The notes under the pieces are model-generated. The model had not been told where the DNA came from, ran no database searches, and worked only from the letters and a program-made list of their open reading frames with translations. The position numbers were made by a program, and so were the translations under genes. Positions 15,945 to 50,602 of a stretch of 64,000 nucleotides of DNA are shown here, piece by piece (positions within the stretch are counted from its first letter, which is position 1; the number at the start of each line of letters is the position of its first letter). The stretch is from a virus (taxonomy: Duplodnaviria > Caudoviricetes), in IMG/VR virus record IMGVR_UViG_3300014205_000170, positions 384,001-448,000 of that record. The stretch is one strand, 5' to 3'.

Positions 15945-16394
15945 ATGGAAAAAAATCATAATTGGATAACACCTTCAGACATTTTTGAAGCGACAAATGA
16001 CTTAATGAAAGAAGCTAGTATTGTATTTAAAGAAGCAGATACTATGTTTAAAGACGTTTTTAATAAAAAACGTAACTTTCCAGCCACAAATATCGTTCAA
16101 AACGAAAAAGGAGTAACGCTAGAAATAGCTATTCCCGGATTCAAAAAAGAAGATGTGAATATTTCTTTGGAAGGTAATGTTTTAACTGTATCCTGCAAAA
16201 CAGAGGAAACAAATAGAAATTTTACTACAAAAGAATTCTCATCTAGTTCTTTTACGCGTTCTTTTAATATTTCTCAGGTTTTAGATAAAAATAAAATCAC
16301 TTCATCTTTAAAGGATGGAATGTTGTTTATTGAAATTCCTAAAATTGAAAAAACTACTGTGAACCCAGAAAAGAAAAATATTCCTGTTAATTAA
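15945..16394 (+). CDS. Hsp20/alpha-crystallin small heat-shock protein
   Basis: PATNI; EIAIPGFKKEDV; SFTRSF; DGMLFIEIPK. Confidence 0.92.
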   Translation: MEKNHNWITPSDIFEATNDLMKEASIVFKEADTMFKDVFNKKRNFPATNIVQNEKGVTLEIAIPGFKKEDVNISLEGNVLTVSCKTEETNRNFTTKEFSSSSFTRSFNISQVLDKNKITSSLKDGMLFIEIPKIEKTTVNPEKKNIPVN

Positions 16395-46095: not shown

Positions 46096-46806
46096 ATGAA
46101 ATATTATGTATATATGTTATTTGATTTAGAAAATCCTTTTTATATTGGTAAAGGAACAAAAAATAGAATGTACGAACATTATAAAAGAGCTACAAAAACA
46201 AAAATAAAATCTCCTGTTTTAGATAAAATTAGAAATATCATTTTAAATAATAGACAAGTGATTTATAAAAAAATTTTTGAGTCTGATATAGAATCAAATG
46301 TTATAAAAAAAGAAATAAATACTATTTTAGAAATTGGTAGAAGAGATTTAAAAACCGGACCACTGTTGAATTTAACAGATGGTGGCGAGGGAGTAACCAA
46401 TTACATTTGGTCAAAAAAACATAAAAAAAATCTTAGTAAATCTATTAAAAAAGCAATAAAAGAAGGAAGATATAATCCTCCAGGAAATATAATTTTAAGA
46501 GAAGAAAAATACAAAAAAACAATGTCTAAAAAAATACAGGAATATTGGAATAGCGAAGAAGGTAAAAAGCATAAAAAAAGAATTTCTGTAAAAAACAAAA
46601 AAAAATTAGATGATGGAAAACGAGTACTATCAAAAAAGGCCAGACAAAAAATGAGAGAATCAGCTTTAAGAACTAATAAAATAAAAAAACAAAAATTAAA
46701 ATGGTCCCGTGGCCGAGGGGAGACGAAAGTCGATAGGCTCAGTTCTGCAAAAACTGCCACATTTGTTCAAATCAAATCGGGACCTCAACAAAATATGCCC
46801 TCGTAG
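46096..46806 (+). CDS. GIY-YIG homing endonuclease (free-standing, Seg/LEM-3-like)
   Basis: YYVYML...PFYIGKG...R...H; E...I..IGRRD..TGPLLNLTDGGEG; basic C-terminal repeats. Confidence 0.85.
   Translation: MKYYVYMLFDLENPFYIGKGTKNRMYEHYKRATKTKIKSPVLDKIRNIILNNRQVIYKKIFESDIESNVIKKEINTILEIGRRDLKTGPLLNLTDGGEGVTNYIWSKKHKKNLSKSIKKAIKEGRYNPPGNIILREEKYKKTMSKKIQEYWNSEEGKKHKKRISVKNKKKLDDGKRVLSKKARQKMRESALRTNKIKKQKLKWSRGRGETKVDRLSSAKTATFVQIKSGPQQNMPS
46703..46785 (+). tRNA. tRNA-Cys(GCA) with D-loop hairpin insertion
   Basis: CAGTT-CTGCAAA-AACTG; U73; GAC-GAAA-GTC in D loop. Confidence 0.78.
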
Positions 46807-46874: not shown

Positions 46875-46970
46875 ACAGAAATAGTTCAGTTGGTAAAACA
46901 CCCGAATCCAAGGGACCAGACCAAGTATAAACAACTTGAAGATTCGCAGGTTCGATTCCTGCTTTCTGTT
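46875..46970 (+). ncRNA. tRNA-like RNA with remodelled anticodon region
   Basis: ACAGAAA/TTTCTGT; TAGTTCAGTTGGTA D arm; GCAGG-TTCGATT-CCTGC; no canonical anticodon arm. Confidence 0.55.
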
Positions 46971-47057: not shown

Positions 47058-47525
47058 TTAGGTAAGATTTCTAAAAACAATTTTATTTCCCTCTCCAATT
47101 TCTCGGATAATTCCTTTCACTTTAATGTTATCAATATTTTCCCACTCTGTAATATCTTTACTTGCTGCTGGTGTTGAGTTTTTATGAAATGCTAATGTAA
47201 TATGTGGCATATCGTTTACTGAATAATATCCAAATGTTTCTACTGCAATTGCATTAGCAGATTTACCAATCGCCTTTATAATTAAAGTAACTTCTTTATT
47301 TAAGTCTCCTCTTAAATATAAACTTTCCGGAAATTCTCCGGTTTTTATTGTCATGTGAAAATTATGCGGTTTACGCCAACCTTGATTAATAGGAACGTAT
47401 TGCTGAACCAATTTTTCAATCTTAGCAATTTCAGAAGGGTCTTCAATAACCACACCAGAATAGATTACGTTCTGCTTTAGGCTTTCCATAATCATTTTCC
47501 TCACTATCTTTCTTAGATTGCTCAT
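47058..47525 (-). CDS. 2H phosphoesterase (2',3'-cyclic phosphodiesterase, tRNA-ligase CPD-like)
   Basis: Two HxT motifs: HMTI and HITL. Confidence 0.75.
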   Translation of the reverse strand: MSNLRKIVRKMIMESLKQNVIYSGVVIEDPSEIAKIEKLVQQYVPINQGWRKPHNFHMTIKTGEFPESLYLRGDLNKEVTLIIKAIGKSANAIAVETFGYYSVNDMPHITLAFHKNSTPAASKDITEWENIDNIKVKGIIREIGEGNKIVFRNLT

Positions 47526-47576: not shown

Positions 47577-48089
47577 ATGAAAAACATTCGAAAAGTTATA
47601 AGAAAAGAACTGTTTAAGCTTTTGGAAAATTATCCAGCAAGTACAGTTAATGACCCATCTGCTCCATGGAATCAGTCAGACCCAAAATTTTTAGAACCAA
47701 AAGTTCCAGGTAGTAATCTTTTTGTAGCAATTTATTTTAACAATGAAATTACTATTCTTAAAAATACACAAGATAATTCAAAATGGTTTTTTTACAATGA
47801 TTCAGTTGAAAAAAATGATTACTTACCATATTCCGGAGCAGAGGATGAAAGTGTTTTTTTAGGTAAAGATGATGATGGACCAATATTCGACGAAAAATAT
47901 AATTGGGAATTGAATGGTCCAATAGTTCAAGATTATATTAATGATAATTTAGAAAATTTAAGCCAAGGCGAGGGAGTAAAAGGGTATGAAGATGGAATAG
48001 ACCTTGTTAAAATAGATGAGCCTCTTATTGTAGCCTTAACTGGTTTATACCGTGACCCAAAATTACAAGAAGTTTTATTAAAGGCATAA
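47577..48089 (+). CDS. Hypothetical head-type protein
   Basis: IRKVIRKE..LLE leader; YP....DPSAPWNQ motif. Confidence 0.6.
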   Translation: MKNIRKVIRKELFKLLENYPASTVNDPSAPWNQSDPKFLEPKVPGSNLFVAIYFNNEITILKNTQDNSKWFFYNDSVEKNDYLPYSGAEDESVFLGKDDDGPIFDEKYNWELNGPIVQDYINDNLENLSQGEGVKGYEDGIDLVKIDEPLIVALTGLYRDPKLQEVLLKA

Positions 48090-48123
48090 TTGACTTTTAA
48101 CTATAAAAAGTTTTAATTTACAC

Positions 48124-48528
48124 ATGCCTATTTCATTTTTTCCTCCAACACAAAACAATAATTCTCTTGCTGATAAATGGGCATCCTCTGGATTATTAGA
48201 TGGATTACATACTACTACTAATACTAATATTGCTTCTTTATTAGAAAGCCAAGCAAGTCAACTTTTATATTACGAAGAACCTGAAAATATATATACACGA
48301 ATAGTTATTTTTGAAAAGTATAAAAAATATAAAGTATATAGAAATTCTAATTCTAGTTTTGAAAGTGTAGGCATACCAATGGTTAGAAGAGTTTTTTCTC
48401 AAATGATTGCTCAAGACCTCGTATCCGTACAACCACTAGCAGCACCAACCGGTACTTTATTTTTTTTCGATGAAATCGAACGCGAAAACGTGTATAAGAA
48501 AAGGGTATTAATTGAAAAGGATATTTAA
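48124..48528 (+). CDS. Truncated major-capsid (gp23-like) N-terminal fragment protein
   Basis: KW..SGLLDGL....NIASLLESQA and IPMVRRVF...IAQDLVSVQPL..PTGTLF.FD match gp23-type N-termini; only 134 aa. Confidence 0.7.
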   Translation: MPISFFPPTQNNNSLADKWASSGLLDGLHTTTNTNIASLLESQASQLLYYEEPENIYTRIVIFEKYKKYKVYRNSNSSFESVGIPMVRRVFSQMIAQDLVSVQPLAAPTGTLFFFDEIERENVYKKRVLIEKDI

Positions 48529-48729
48529 ATGATAACACCACAAATAAATTTTGGTTTAGATTGGAAATATAATCTATGGGGACACCAAACTAATGTTTAT
48601 TCTAGAATTGTTATTGTAGAAAAGATTAAAAAGAATATCTTTATATCTCCTGGTGTTTACACTATAGAACTTGATGTAGATTATATTGATGCTACTATGT
48701 ATAATGTATTTATTGATTTTGAGCAATGA
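48529..48729 (+). CDS. Small protein containing tail-sheath N-terminal motif
   Basis: FISPGVYTIELD; preceded by RIVIVEK. Confidence 0.55.
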   Translation: MITPQINFGLDWKYNLWGHQTNVYSRIVIVEKIKKNIFISPGVYTIELDVDYIDATMYNVFIDFEQ

Positions 48730-48968
48730 TAAAATCTTTGGCTAAAAATATACTTCAATCTCAGTTGATAAATCTTCTTGGAAAAGAATTTGAAATCAGC
48801 AGTATTAGTGATATGTATATCACTAATCATGATGAACATACTAGATATGTGATTATGGAAAAGTATCCTGAAAAAGAAAATGGTAATTCAATCATCAATG
48901 TTAATGTTGAAATAAAAAGACCAGCAACTTATATAAAAACTTCTTTTCAAATAGAACAAATTGATTAA
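48726..48968 (+). CDS. Small protein with weak tail-sheath C-terminal resemblance
   Basis: INVNVEIKRPATYIKTSFQI; RYVIMEK. Confidence 0.4.
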   Translation: MIKSLAKNILQSQLINLLGKEFEISSISDMYITNHDEHTRYVIMEKYPEKENGNSIINVNVEIKRPATYIKTSFQIEQID

Positions 48969-49363
48969 TGCTACGACTAGGAAAGCCTATAACAATTGCA
49001 ACACAAATAGTTGAAACTACTGCCTCAATTATCTTTAAAAATGAAGAAATTATTATAACAAAAATTGATGAGAAATCATTTGGTCACTTTTTTAAAAAAC
49101 GTACAATTCAGAATGAACATGTGTGGTCGATATATTATTTAGAAGATTATGAGTATTTTAATTTATCAAGAACGCGAACAATATTAATTGAAAAATATCA
49201 AAAAAAAGGTCATTTATATTGGCATTATGACTTTTATGAACCGGTTCAACTCATAGGTAAAGGTTCTGAATTGGATGGATATGAAGAAATGTTTAGTGAA
49301 TTATTAGAAAGAAACAGCATTTTTACTCCGGAAACCACTTTAATTCTAAAAAGAACTTTATAA
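48968..49363 (+). CDS. Hypothetical protein with RTILIEK motif
   Basis: Translationally coupled to the previous ORFs. Confidence 0.5.
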   Translation: MLRLGKPITIATQIVETTASIIFKNEEIIITKIDEKSFGHFFKKRTIQNEHVWSIYYLEDYEYFNLSRTRTILIEKYQKKGHLYWHYDFYEPVQLIGKGSELDGYEEMFSELLERNSIFTPETTLILKRTL

Positions 49364-49429: not shown

Positions 49430-49861
49430 ATGAAATTTATTCACGTCATAACGAACCACACCCCTGAAGAAATGGACCAAATCGTTTCTCAGTTTGATAA
49501 GATTTCTTATGAGCTAATGGTTGATTTCTATAAGAGCTTTAGTTATGTGGAATATGTCACGGAAAGTGGCCATATGGCCATGTATGCCCTTATTAGAGAA
49601 CATTCTATAGAAAAGCTATTACAAGAATATATCAAATGGGAAGTTGATTTCTCATATGCAGACATTACAAAGCCGGTATTATTTAGTAAGCTTAAACCTC
49701 AGATAAACAACGAACAAGATAATCTTCAATTACAAGGTATTGTTGAAGGGTTTTTAGAAGATTTTGTAGATATTGATATGGTCCTTGACAAAATCAGCGA
49801 AGATAAAGGCATGCAAACCTTAACAGAACACGAAAAAAGGATTTTACACCCAACCTTATAA
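49430..49861 (+). CDS. Hypothetical protein (C-terminal D..LDKI...G...LT..EK..L motif)
   Basis: ORF followed by a bidirectional terminator at about 49866-49897. Confidence 0.6.
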   Translation: MKFIHVITNHTPEEMDQIVSQFDKISYELMVDFYKSFSYVEYVTESGHMAMYALIREHSIEKLLQEYIKWEVDFSYADITKPVLFSKLKPQINNEQDNLQLQGIVEGFLEDFVDIDMVLDKISEDKGMQTLTEHEKRILHPTL

Positions 49862-49940
49862 AAGCAAAAAACCTACTTTTTTAGAGTAGGTTTTTTTGTG
49901 CTCATACTTATTGCGAATCAGTACAAACGTCGTAGGAATA

Positions 49941-50396
49941 TTATTCTCCAGCAGTTCCCATAGAGAAGGCACCTTGACCTCCCATTTTACTTGCTAGTCT
50001 ATCAAATGCTTTTGTTTGAGCATTCCAGTTTGCATTTTTACCATTACCGGCTAAAATTGCTAGACCACCATTTGCCATCATAAAATTGATTAATGCAGTC
50101 TTTAATGTATTTACATCAGTTCCTAATTGTTTTGCAGTATTAGCAATAGTTTTAGCATATGTTTGATTAAATGCTTGCTCTGCTTTTTGCTGATTCCACT
50201 TAGTACCCATGAATTGTCCTAATTTGTTACCAAGACCAAAAACTTCTTCAAGTTCATCAACTTCATACATCTCATTCAATTGAGATACAATTTGGTTTTT
50301 TCTATCTTCAAGTTCTTTAATCTTTTTGAATTTTTTTACTTCTTCATTAATAAGATTAGAAATTTGTGATTTTGTTATTTTAACGGTCTTGCTCAT
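49941..50396 (-). CDS. Head-type protein with KITKSQISNLINEEV leader
   Basis: Shared N-terminal motif. Confidence 0.6.
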   Translation of the reverse strand: MSKTVKITKSQISNLINEEVKKFKKIKELEDRKNQIVSQLNEMYEVDELEEVFGLGNKLGQFMGTKWNQQKAEQAFNQTYAKTIANTAKQLGTDVNTLKTALINFMMANGGLAILAGNGKNANWNAQTKAFDRLASKMGGQGAFSMGTAGE

Positions 50397-50455: not shown

Positions 50456-50602
50456 TTAATTTTCCTTTGAAAGATTTTCTAAATCAGATAAAATTTTAGC
50501 TTTTTTTCCCTCTAAACACAATTTCTTTTTAAATTTTTTAGCTTCTTTTGAGATAATTTTTTTCAAATCTTCTACAGATATTTTAGTTACTTTTTCTTCC
50601 AT
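50456..50602 (-). CDS. 48-aa protein consisting only of the shared head-type leader (not in ORF track)
   Basis: MEEKVTKISVEDLKKIISKEAKKFKKKLCLEGKKAKILSDLENLSKEN. Confidence 0.55.
   Translation of the reverse strand: MEEKVTKISVEDLKKIISKEAKKFKKKLCLEGKKAKILSDLENLSKEN

Follow-up and report, generated by a model that had tools for sequence, protein, structure and literature searches.

The phage examined here encodes, at positions 48124-49363 of the window (the 64,000-nucleotide stretch of DNA that was analysed, part of a 519-kb phage genome), four translationally coupled ORFs of 134, 66, 80 and 131 aa, the first of which is a miniature gp23-type capsid protein and the second a carrier of the tail-sheath N-terminal donor strand. 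All four ORFs contain a short peptide tag of the form [RK]-x-[IVL]-[IVL]-x-E-K (five copies, all internal), and the operon has been kept under purifying selection. The arrangement had been described from the sequence alone as four coupled small ORFs, and its coordinates and junctions are borne out exactly: ORF1 ends in a TAA that is directly followed by the ATG of ORF2, ORF2 and ORF3 overlap in ATGA, and ORF3 and ORF4 overlap in TAATG. The features discussed below are the following, in window positions except for the last.

48090-48120, plus strand: promoter-like motif 5' of ORF1 (TTGACT at 48090-48095, 17 nt, TTAATTTA at 48113-48120)
48124-48528, plus strand: ORF1, 134 aa, mini-gp23 composed of block 1, tag, block 2 and second tag (Pfam, phrog_138 and own capsid matches)
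48157-48267, plus strand: ORF1 residues 12-48, capsid-protein N-terminal block 1 (KW.SSGLLDGL...LLESQASQLL; phrog_138 alignment)
48298-48318, plus strand: ORF1 tag copy 1, RIVIFEK, residues 59-65
48346-48474, plus strand: ORF1 residues 75-117, capsid-protein block 2 (IPMVRRVFSQMIAQDLVSVQPLAAPTGTLFFF; PF07068 match at residues 77-114)
48499-48519, plus strand: ORF1 tag copy 2, KRVLIEK, residues 126-132, preceded by ENVY as in homologs
48529-48729, plus strand: ORF2, 66 aa, tag followed by the sheath N-terminal donor strand (sheath profile, hhalign)
48604-48624, plus strand: ORF2 tag, RIVIVEK, residues 26-32
48631-48681, plus strand: ORF2 residues 35-51, mimic of the sheath N-terminal arm (NIFISPGVYTIELDVDY; sheath N-terminal HMM positions 3-19)
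48726-48968, plus strand: ORF3, 80 aa, conserved, with a central tag RYVIMEK (residues 40-46, 48843-48863) followed by YPEK
48891-48962, plus strand: ORF3 residues 56-79, C-terminal strand (NVNVEIKRPATYIKTSFQI) with weak likeness to the sheath C-terminal donor strand (GKIQLKPTPTLEFIDLTFQV)
48968-49363, plus strand: ORF4, 131 aa, small protein predicted to fold (AF2), with tag RTILIEK (residues 70-76, 49175-49195)
49866-49896, no strand: first terminator-like hairpin downstream of the operon, after the next gene (49430-49861)
Genome 355857-357416, minus strand: the phage's own major capsid protein, 519 aa, adjoining the scaffold and protease genes

Capsid and sheath segments in the operon

The two gp23-type N-terminal blocks claimed for the 134-aa ORF1 are supported by significant matches to both profiles and to the phage's own capsid protein. 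ORF1 matched the Pfam Gp23 profile PF07068 with E=5.5e-9 and 36.3 bits (cut-off 24.4) over residues 77-114, a match that spans only positions 2-39 of the 376 in the profile, and the major head protein family phrog_138 with E=2.3e-10 over residues 12-115. Comparison with the phage's own 519-aa capsid protein yielded 76.6 bits (E=2e-19, 38% identity across 108 aa; the maximum obtained with shuffled queries was 29 bits), and residues 12-48 also match the capsid proteins of relatives. Block 2 aligns with T4 gp23 residues ∼94-127, the most conserved stretch of gp23, with V99, R100, R101, A108, V114, Q115, P116, P120, G122 and F125 invariant; a published description of the Gol region also ranks it as the best-conserved part of gp23 (PMC3014915).

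Homologs of ORF1 with the same build (126-230 aa) are present in other metagenomes. Members of the family have stayed 35-48% identical and retain the capsid invariants, which together with the tags make up its conserved positions. In a phylogenetic tree, the mini-gp23 family stands apart from all 29 full-length capsid proteins (support 96/89), which argues for an old, separately evolving lineage. A locus search for relatives with ORF1 or ORF4 as a single sequence gave no match. With 134 aa and an AF2 model that predicts no stable fold (pLDDT 51), ORF1 is not a full-length shell-forming fold of the HK97 type, which needs ∼450-550 aa; the lack of a predicted fold of its own fits peptide binding by augmenting another protein.

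The sheath N-terminal signature ascribed to ORF2 proved to be a property of its family. The ORF2 segment 'IFISPGVYTIELD' is identical to the N-terminus of the phage's own sheath, 'VFVSPGVYTREQD', at 9 of 13 positions; compared with that sheath alone, ORF2 scored 24.3 bits, which is below the shuffle maximum of 27.7. Against a profile of 39 non-redundant sheath N-termini it scored E=4.7e-6 and its orthologs 1.9e-9 and 2.4e-7, and when the ORF2 and sheath families were aligned by hhalign, P was 7e-6 over sheath residues 2-28; a further hhalign value for the arm segment was 3e-8. The donor strand (SPGVYxxExD) is thus contained in ORF2 residues 35-51. The sheath core domains are absent from the operon: six-frame genome searches with PF04984 and PF17482 returned the 773-aa sheath gene as sole match. 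Orthologs of ORF2 were found in the metagenomic relatives L082 and L083, in the L085 clade and in the 389-kb genome G003. In native sheaths, a conserved handshake mesh has the N- and C-terminal strands as its donors (PMC5807055, PMC8195476), and a free copy of such a strand therefore has an obvious binding site. Structure prediction of sheath residues 25-772 together with ORF2 gave scores of 0.45, 0.18 and 0.19 against a mark of 0.32, values that favour neither binding nor its absence.

Homology searches with ORF3 or ORF4 returned only the query itself, and their orthologs were located through synteny. The ORF3 homologs (81-109 aa) share DDNTRFVIxEKYPEK. Aligned by hhalign, ORF3 gave P=0.016 against the full sheath (best alignment with sheath residues 701-766) and P=0.029 against the alignment of the C-terminal arm, and searches with a sheath C-terminal HMM and Pfam PF17482 did not match it. 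The likeness to a sheath C-terminal strand is accordingly as weak as the sequence-only reading had put it, and an origin of ORF3 from that strand is suggestive only. ORF4 is modelled by AF2 as a confident fold (pLDDT 81, pTM 0.73) with a loop of low confidence (residues 63-80, below 50), and the tag is predicted to sit within this exposed, disordered loop. A search of the ORF4 profile against 1.84 billion representatives recovered four small homologs only, with no capsid protein among them; one of these, P0018, carries no tag at the corresponding loop, nor do the neighbours of P0018. HMM searches and hhalign detected no capsid or sheath similarity in ORF4, and Foldseek searches of its fold against PDB and BFVD gave no match at E<=0.001. 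With VIA-align the best Z was 4.9, and sHSP and CS domains made up many of the top rows, with aligned cores that span 63-70 residues at ∼3 Å. Searches of Pfam, PHROGs, NCBIfam and PADLOC returned no match for ORF2-4.

The proposal that the operon consists of capsid and sheath fragments thus holds for ORF1 and ORF2 and is suggestive for ORF3, while ORF4 is not a detectable fragment. The alternative of a single shattered capsid paralog collinear with gp23 was rejected, ORF2 being derived from the sheath. When aligned to the capsid family, the ORF3 and ORF4 families gave non-significant P values of 0.27 and 0.2 in hhalign and no match in HMM searches; capsid-like strings noticed by eye in these two proteins (LEDYEYF, IGKG, FTPE) found no support in the profile searches.

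All frames are intact in four orthologous loci (L085, L087, L090, L091). Values of omega in these loci range from 0.09 to 0.61 (ORF3 dN/dS 0.11-0.14), and nonsynonymous change is depleted in ORF1 (p=0.001), ORF3 (p=8e-6) and ORF4 (p=1e-6), with a pooled binomial p=1.7e-12. The view that the operon is not pseudogene debris is confirmed by this purifying selection. Lack of a profile match to gp23 or gp18, or neutral decay in relatives, had been named as findings that would speak against the sequence-only reading; the matches are significant and the ORFs are not decaying.

Synteny of the operon is kept in L082, L083 and the L085 clade. The promoter-like motif ends 3 nt before the ATG of ORF1, and the homologs are preceded by a motif of equal spacing (TTGAyTTT, ∼17 nt, TTAATTTG or TATATTTG, 4-5 nt, ATG; compared in L082, L083, L085, L087, L090 and L091). 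The motif, which is conserved, resembles the Bacteroidota sigma-A consensus (-33 TTG, -7 TAnnTTTG). By this likeness the promoter is most likely of host type, and from its host-type appearance we infer early expression of the operon. A sigma-70 promoter scan was uninformative (15 sites, 15.4 expected), an Rfam search inside the operon gave no match, and the downstream hairpin is a possible transcript end. The operon lies 75 kb from the head module, outside the structural module and amid tRNA genes and small accessory genes, with a gene for a GIY-YIG homing endonuclease 1.3 kb upstream. There was no sign of an alternative genetic code, the capsid and sheath genes being open under table 11. A read-through fusion of ORF1 and ORF2, which share one frame with a single TAA between them, was rejected because in L082 and L083 the two homologous genes overlap, by 1 and 4 nt respectively, and hence lie in different frames.

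A peptide tag on many small proteins

The motif said to join the four ORFs is present in all five quoted copies; it is not private to the operon, being found genome-wide on at least 72 small proteins. Strict matches in the ORFs of the genome number 48, compared with 1.06 +/- 1.0 in 200 shuffles, and a one-round tag HMM identified at least 72 tag-bearing proteins (median length 102 aa) where 3 are expected by chance. Among 72 of these the tag lies at the C-terminus in 39, at the N-terminus in 23 and internally in 10; N-terminal copies include MRIVLIEK and MDIIKRIVLIEK, and NVYTRIVLIEKY is a further example of a tag peptide. Synonymous variation of its codons shows that the motif is conserved as peptide and not as repeated DNA; a DNA-level repeat or mobile element as its source was rejected on these grounds and because the flanks of different copies are unrelated. 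Further tagged capsid fragments are encoded at genome positions 308534-308767 (C-terminus) and 469916-470308 (middle part). The tag is, in short, portable.

Relatives differ in their tags. G003 lacks this tag type, and 39 of its proteins start with an N-terminal MRKxFY instead. These include an ortholog of ORF2 (ORF2-family HMM E=2.4e-6) and four capsid fragments at E<0.01, and the genes form tandem arrays of variable small genes. Sequence comparison thus indicates that the tag has been swapped between lineages, with the same ORF2 body under a different tag in G003. In the smaller relatives G001 and G005, whose capsid proteins are 82% and 70% identical to that of this phage, both tags and small fragments are absent. 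G004 has similar fragments as untagged fusions with enzymes, one a dCMP deaminase and the other a GT2 glycosyltransferase; a 5-mer, 'YIKQI', considered as a third tag in this genome looks like a DNA repeat in a spurious frame.

Possible roles of the tagged proteins

Our leading interpretation, which we put forward tentatively, is that the four ORFs encode modular handle-plus-bait proteins that bind capsid and sheath subunits, or the sensors of these, and link them to a reader of the tag. The handle would be the lineage-specific [ST]-R-x-V-[LI]-x-E-K, a portable and exposed short linear motif read by one common putative partner. The bait in ORF1, ORF2 and possibly ORF3 would descend from a virion protein, as a short contact segment duplicated long ago: for ORF1 the pair of N-terminal blocks best conserved in the major capsid protein, for ORF2 the sheath N-terminal donor strand, which in real sheaths completes the handshake beta-sheet of a neighbouring subunit, and for ORF3 perhaps the sheath C-terminal donor strand. 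Half of the operon falls outside the bait label because ORF3 and ORF4 have no demonstrable virion-protein origin. Made early from a host-type promoter, far from the structural genes, the proteins would use the bait to dock on acceptor surfaces of capsid and sheath subunits not yet assembled, and the handle to couple the captured subunits to the common partner. The net effect would be that virion assembly is blocked or timed, most plausibly in competing co-infecting phages. HSP20 as the reader of the tag is an idea only.

The two functions suggested by the sequence-only reading, sensor decoys and dominant-negative assembly poisons, are both compatible with the data. Mobile elements are established users of such interference with virion assembly, Tab (PMC10884400) and Tai (PMC11364771) being examples. 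A weakness of the poison reading is that a target at conserved interfaces would include the phage's own capsid and sheath; we assume self-protection by timing or turnover. The untagged G004 fragments fused to enzymes fit a docking or regulatory module at least as well as a poison. A broader extension, which we regard as doubtful, is that giant T4-related phages run a modular targeting system with a handle and reader per lineage and grafted baits, in the manner of PROTAC-like inter-viral warfare; such a system would capture rivals' unassembled virion subunits, or the host sensors of them, for sequestration or destruction by a common machine.

We consider it rather unlikely that the proteins are decoys for host immune sensors, in which copies of conserved capsid and sheath epitopes would keep the sensors busy from early on, with the tag routing the complex to sequestration or degradation. 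Block 2 of ORF1 is the equivalent of the T4 gp23 region holding the Gol peptide, a linear gp23 segment that is sensed with EF-Tu by the Lit protease (PMC3014915); conserved cores of virion proteins, capsid and tube among them, are what many Avs/STAND sensors detect (bioRxiv 10.64898/2026.01.04.697583); and the apparent early promoter would suit action ahead of the late proteins. A fragment with a sensed epitope should, however, trigger the sensor and not blunt it, a 29-residue gp23 region being what defines Gol function (PMC3014915). Moreover, what Avs sensors read is a folded core, and ORF1 is not predicted to fold; the tail sheath is named only as a possible, still undetected sensor target (bioRxiv 10.64898/2026.01.04.697583). 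The sheath donor strand would also be a poor non-self signal because host contractile systems share it.

A packaging role for the tag appears unlikely. Like the T4 capsid targeting sequence, the tag would load proteins into the prohead; cleavage there by the T4-type prohead protease, behind the Glu in [LI]-x-E-K, would free peptides with near-native ends for injection into the next host. The consensus of the T4 prohead protease is L/I-x-E, and the tag core [IVL]-[IVL]-x-E-K contains this pattern as a sequence match only. The N-terminal copies (MRIVLIEK and MDIIKRIVLIEK) resemble the ten-residue signal of T4, the scaffold beside the capsid gene opens with repeated I-E-K and L-I-E sites, and the tandem arrays of N-terminally tagged genes in G003 resemble the polymorphic internal-protein loci of T-even phages. 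Cleavage of ORF2 after E31 would place the sheath arm 5 residues from the new N-terminus, compared with 3 residues in the native arm. The tags are, however, mostly C-terminal (39 of 72) or internal, unlike the T4 signal; the G003 tag offers no protease site because MRKxFY holds no Glu; the promoter is apparently of host type and the operon remote from the head module; and a purpose of packaged sheath or capsid peptides is not evident.

That the proteins act as chaperones or timers in the assembly of the phage's own particles, with strand mimics capping sheath and capsid acceptor sites until assembly displaces them, seems to us very unlikely. PapD-type chaperones cap pilins similarly, ORF2 and perhaps ORF3 correspond precisely to the pair of donor strands in the handshake sheet, and the family is conserved along with the phage lineage under purifying selection. 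Yet the operon resides among tRNA and accessory genes and not in the structural module, the tag is common to dozens of unrelated small proteins, G001 and G005 assemble the same capsid and sheath proteins without such genes, and the arms of the ORF2 family are far more variable than the nearly invariant arms of real sheaths.

Neutral debris, that is, pieces of strongly expressed late genes scattered by illegitimate recombination or homing-endonuclease traffic and open by chance, is largely refuted and scarcely tenable: the upstream GIY-YIG gene, the annotated partial alt duplications alt.-1 and alt.-2 of T4 (record AF158101) and the unrelated gene contexts of the G004 fragments would suit it, but the intact frames with depleted nonsynonymous change in four orthologous loci, the retention of capsid invariants at 35-48% identity, the conserved promoter motif and the retention of the ORF2 ortholog under another tag in G003 all stand against it.

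Comparison with known systems

If the handle-plus-bait reading is true, these would be the first natural contact peptides of structural proteins excised and reused as free-standing tagged effectors, and giant phages would address large sets of small proteins by a lineage-specific peptide code. A pull-down with the tag would then be an experimental handle on the putative hub protein, and the operon might represent a new form of inter-phage competition or immune evasion and a source of peptides ready for use as inhibitors when contractile sheaths or T4-type capsids assemble. Whatever the function, selected capsid and sheath mini-genes, one body with two tags, fit no described class of phage gene. 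Taken together, the operon and the different tag of its relatives point to a hitherto undescribed means by which virion proteins are interfered with or reported on.

Portable peptides that address many proteins to one partner are known from encapsulin cargo-loading peptides, whose partner is an HK97-fold shell, and from the IxI/V motifs of sHSPs, whose partner is the alpha-crystallin groove; unlike these, the tag has no sequence match beyond the V-L-I core. The phage's HSP20 (window 15945-16394) carries a C-terminal IPV of its own.

The T4 capsid targeting sequence of IPI, IPII, IPIII and Alt is similarly a short peptide common to unrelated small accessory proteins, the present tag ends in hydrophobic-x-Glu as does a prohead protease site (a sequence match only), and the variable tandem arrays of tagged genes in G003 recall the T4 internal-protein loci. 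The T4 sequence, however, comprises ∼ten residues at the extreme N-terminus, whereas the tag here is mostly C-terminal or internal on at least 72 proteins and differs completely between related phages, and some of the tagged bodies are pieces of capsid or sheath, which have no counterpart in T4.

Tab and Tai (PMC10884400, PMC11364771) are likewise small accessory proteins, encoded by phages or satellites, by which the tail assembly of another phage is stopped, and they require self-protection against autoimmunity. They are not known to be fragments of the blocked structural protein, they carry no shared tag, and they are prophage or satellite defences, while the operon belongs to a lytic-type megaphage. 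In chaperone-usher pili (PapD/FimC) and in the handshake mesh of sheaths (PMC5807055, PMC8195476), a beta-strand provided in trans completes the sheet of another subunit, as ORF2 may do; PapD and FimC are folded and unrelated to the subunit, whereas ORF2 is an excised strand joined to a tag, and its binding is putative. The T4 Gol peptide (PMC3014915) and ORF1 have in common the best-conserved segment of gp23, which acts as a peptide recognisable on its own; Gol is a portion of the capsid protein in its full length and sets off a suicide protease of the host, whereas ORF1 is a separate conserved gene. Lastly, T4 alt.-1 and alt.-2 (AF158101), a partial duplication of the start of alt, are also small ORFs derived from part of a larger virion-associated gene. 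In contrast to that local tandem relic, the fragments described here are dispersed, tagged, conserved across lineages and under selection.

The operon and its surroundings

The virus record (518,809 bp with direct terminal repeats; the window comprises bases 384001-448000) encodes a gp23-type capsid protein; among cultured phages, those nearest to the virus are Flavobacterium myophages. The window is AT-rich (G+C about 30%) and alone carries 32 tRNA genes. The sequence-only reading had described an operon of four coupled small ORFs; coordinates and junctions (in order TAA then ATG, ATGA and TAATG) agree with it:

48124-48528, ORF1 (134 aa)
48529-48729, ORF2 (66 aa)
48726-48968, ORF3 (80 aa)
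48968-49363, ORF4 (131 aa)

The operon is surrounded by tRNA genes, a GIY-YIG homing-endonuclease gene and small genes without known function; the head module is 75 kb away and the sheath gene 106 kb. Nearby features include:

46096-46806 (+), GIY-YIG homing-endonuclease-like gene (PF22945, E=2.7e-8), 1.3 kb from the operon, with the last tRNA genes immediately downstream
46875-46970 (+), third tRNA-like gene, between two tRNA-Arg genes (Rfam tRNA 41.8 bits, gathering score 29; 96 nt, hence an insertion of about 23 nt; no ARAGORN call)
47058-47525 (-), gene upstream of the operon with a weak LigT/2'-5' RNA ligase match
47577-48089 (+), gene upstream of the operon sharing the N-terminal start M..[IL]RK.[IV]RK with 47058-47525
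49941-50396 (-) and 50456-50602 (-), adjoining genes with the common N-terminal motif K[IV]T/S..Q/D[IL]..LI.EE.KKFKK, present too in their homologs at metagenomic loci L082 and L083

The start M..[IL]RK.[IV]RK marks six of the genome's proteins (7 matches; shuffles, 0.18), is kept in the relatives' homologs and may represent a second, rarer common label.

Contigs with ORF1 homologs are syntenic, the order being LigT-like gene, 170-aa gene, ORF1 homolog, ORF2 homolog, ORF3 homolog, C5 DNA methylase and a homolog of the gene after the window operon; the L085 clade has an ORF4 homolog between the last two. The C5 cytosine methylase gene (PF00145; L082:6186-7076, L083:6188-7057, L085:6075-6953) thus separates the ORF3 and ORF4 homologs in that clade, and is absent from the window, where ORF3 and ORF4 meet at 48968. 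In front of every ORF1 homolog stands a conserved promoter-like motif consisting of TTGAyTTT, a spacer of about 17 nt and TTAATTTG or TATATTTG, which ends 3-5 nt before the ATG. This motif resembles the Bacteroidota sigma-A consensus, from which we infer that the operon is transcribed early by the host polymerase.

Capsid and sheath segments

By its sequence matches, ORF1 is a true gp23 fragment. The gp23 kinship claimed for it was borne out by PF07068 (E=5.5e-9) and phrog_138 (E=2.3e-10), and comparison with the phage's own 519-aa capsid protein yielded 76.6 bits (shuffled queries, maximum 29). The retained blocks span residues 12-48 and 75-117; the second aligns with T4 gp23 residues about 94-127 and retains the invariant residues there. 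This T4 stretch is the most conserved of gp23 and contains the Gol peptide (PMC3014915). Structure prediction gave no fold for ORF1. Its short homologs (126-230 aa, 35-48% identity) have the same build: tag (the shared peptide described below), block 1, insert, block 2, then ENVY-x-x-R-V-h-h-E-K. In a tree of 87 shared columns, the ten mini-gp23 proteins (ORF1 and short homologs) form a group with long branches, apart from every one of the 29 full-length capsid proteins (support 96/89); they are therefore an old paralogous lineage rather than recent copies.

Pairwise, ORF2 (IFISPGVYTIELD) does not score above chance, judged by shuffles, against the sheath N-terminus (VFVSPGVYTREQD). When all 2,246 ORFs were searched with a profile built from 39 non-redundant sheath N-termini, the ORF2 family ranked directly below sheath itself (E=1.9e-9, 2.4e-7 and 4.7e-6). 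The 4.7e-6 match, together with profile-profile comparison of family and sheath (P=7e-6), bears out the sheath N-terminal signature proposed for ORF2. Its homologs retain tag and sheath arm; one has two arm copies, and in another the match extends to about 30 sheath residues. The weak C-terminal sheath likeness ascribed to ORF3 is suggestive: the best local alignment does fall at the C-terminal strand (P=0.016-0.029), and HMM searches for sheath did not find ORF3. For ORF4, HMM and profile-profile searches detected neither capsid nor sheath ancestry.

Two further observations concern sheath. A 166-aa ORF at genome 448526-449026 (+), 526 bases past the window end, matches the N-arm profile with its last 15 residues (E=0.011) and may be another sheath-arm display protein. 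Among the relatives' sheath genes, the match of one clade (L122-L131, L162) is about 530 bases longer than the others', with 17 stops in straight translation, which suggests that an intron or a homing endonuclease has inserted within the gene.

An exchangeable peptide tag

The shared motif is a genome-wide tag: its core, [RK]-x-[IVL]-[IVL]-x-E-K, was counted 48 times among the genome's ORFs, against 1.06 +/- 1.0 in shuffles. Its Arg, Val, Leu, Glu and Lys residues are encoded by freely varying codons between unrelated flanks, so selection acts on the peptide. A one-round HMM (threshold 7 bits or more) retrieved 72 proteins, against 3 in shuffles, with a median of 102 aa and none above 268 aa; 39 carry the tag C-terminally, 23 N-terminally and 10 internally. 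Two other capsid fragments elsewhere in the genome bear the tag as well:

308534-308767 (genome), tag and capsid C-terminus
469916-470308 (genome), two tags and capsid middle region

The predicted ORF4 fold is confident (pLDDT 81, pTM 0.73) except at the tag-bearing residues 63-80. In a distant homolog, P0018, it is just this loop that has no tag, and none of the P0018 neighbours bears one. On this model, the tag forms an exposed module that is portable between proteins. The idea, and it is only an idea, that the phage's own small heat-shock protein could read the tag comes from a weak likeness of ORF4 to beta-sandwich folds (Z<=4.9). The HSP20 groove binds I/V-x-I/V peptides, which makes the protein a candidate reader of the tag's V-L-I core.

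15945-16394 (+), HSP20 gene (PF00011, E=3.8e-21), with the canonical I-P-V anchoring motif at its C-terminus

Four related genomes were compared in full; with the window's own, this makes five genomes behind the co-occurrence of tags and fragments.

Tags and capsid or sheath fragments in the related genomes
G003, 389 kb: TRxVLxEK-type tag absent (shuffles 1-3); small fragments present, tagged; MRKxFY start in 39 proteins (shuffles 0-1), many of them arrayed in tandem
G004, 372 kb: no tags; small fragments present in other settings
G005, 291 kb: no tags; no small fragments
G001, 232 kb: no tags; no small fragments

A search of the window's genome for MRKxFY N-termini found none. In G003, a 64-aa MRKxFY-tagged protein (MRKKFYHAFKKHKIIFMSPGIYTREIDRSFV...) matches the sheath N-arm profile (E=9.5e-7) and, over 45 residues, the ORF2-family profile (E=2.4e-6), which makes it an ORF2 ortholog that bears a different tag. 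Tagged capsid fragments there cover block 1, block 2, the C-terminus and a segment near residues 404-432; another tagged ORF, of 61 aa, has by eye the look of the spine helix. One tandem array (G003:C1:222859-229682, +) holds about 22 small genes, each starting MRK.FY.

G004 encodes one tagless mini-gp23, a fusion of dCMP deaminase (PF00383; C1:16446-17321, -) with part of the capsid protein (HMM positions 381-447, E=2.4e-16), and a GT2 glycosyltransferase (PF00535; C1:179372-180172, +) whose first 22 residues are sheath-arm-like (E=8e-4; initial peptide MTKMLSPIFVSPGFSSVEYD). About 17 short ORFs with 'GY.YIKQI..KSG' in G004:C1:320000-348000 (-) are probably a dispersed DNA repeat in a spurious reading frame, possibly a regulatory element. 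Lineages thus exchange the tag while keeping the fragment bodies, and such fragments can also be built into other proteins as modules.

Possible roles and selection

In all contractile systems, neighbouring subunits contribute an N-terminal and a C-terminal arm as the two donor strands that complete the handshake sheet of each sheath subunit (PMC5807055, PMC8195476). The obvious target of a free N-arm copy, perhaps of a C-arm copy too, would be the acceptor site of an unassembled sheath subunit; the capsid blocks of ORF1 are likewise the most conserved gp23 segments. Because of this acceptor site and this conservation, the best-supported reading is that the capsid or sheath segment acts as bait, binding virion subunits or whatever else recognises such segments, and that the tag would bind one common partner.

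Three variants of this bait-and-tag reading are possible: the proteins may serve in rivalry between co-infecting phages, they may be decoys that engage host sensors, or the tag may be a T4-type signal for capsid targeting. Tab (PMC10884400) and Tai (PMC11364771) are precedents for accessory genes that interfere with assembly.

Neutral debris is effectively excluded, as the earlier reading had argued from the intact frames: all frames are intact among four close loci, and the nonsynonymous fraction is reduced (binomial p=0.001, 0.16, 8e-6 and 1e-6 for ORF1 to ORF4; pooled 1.7e-12). The dN/dS ranges in relatives, 0.09-0.61 overall, were 0.15-0.61 for ORF1 and 0.23-0.55 for ORF2 (close loci), 0.11-0.14 for ORF3 (informative pairs) and 0.09-0.23 for ORF4; the neighbouring methylase gave 0.02-0.16 (informative pairs, 0.02-0.05). 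These comparisons indicate that the operon is conserved and under selection.

Two points favour T4-type capsid targeting. The T4 prohead-protease consensus is L/I-x-E, and the tag contains this putative protease pattern. Moreover, the N-terminal MRK.FY arrays of G003 resemble the polymorphic loci that encode internal proteins in T-even phages.
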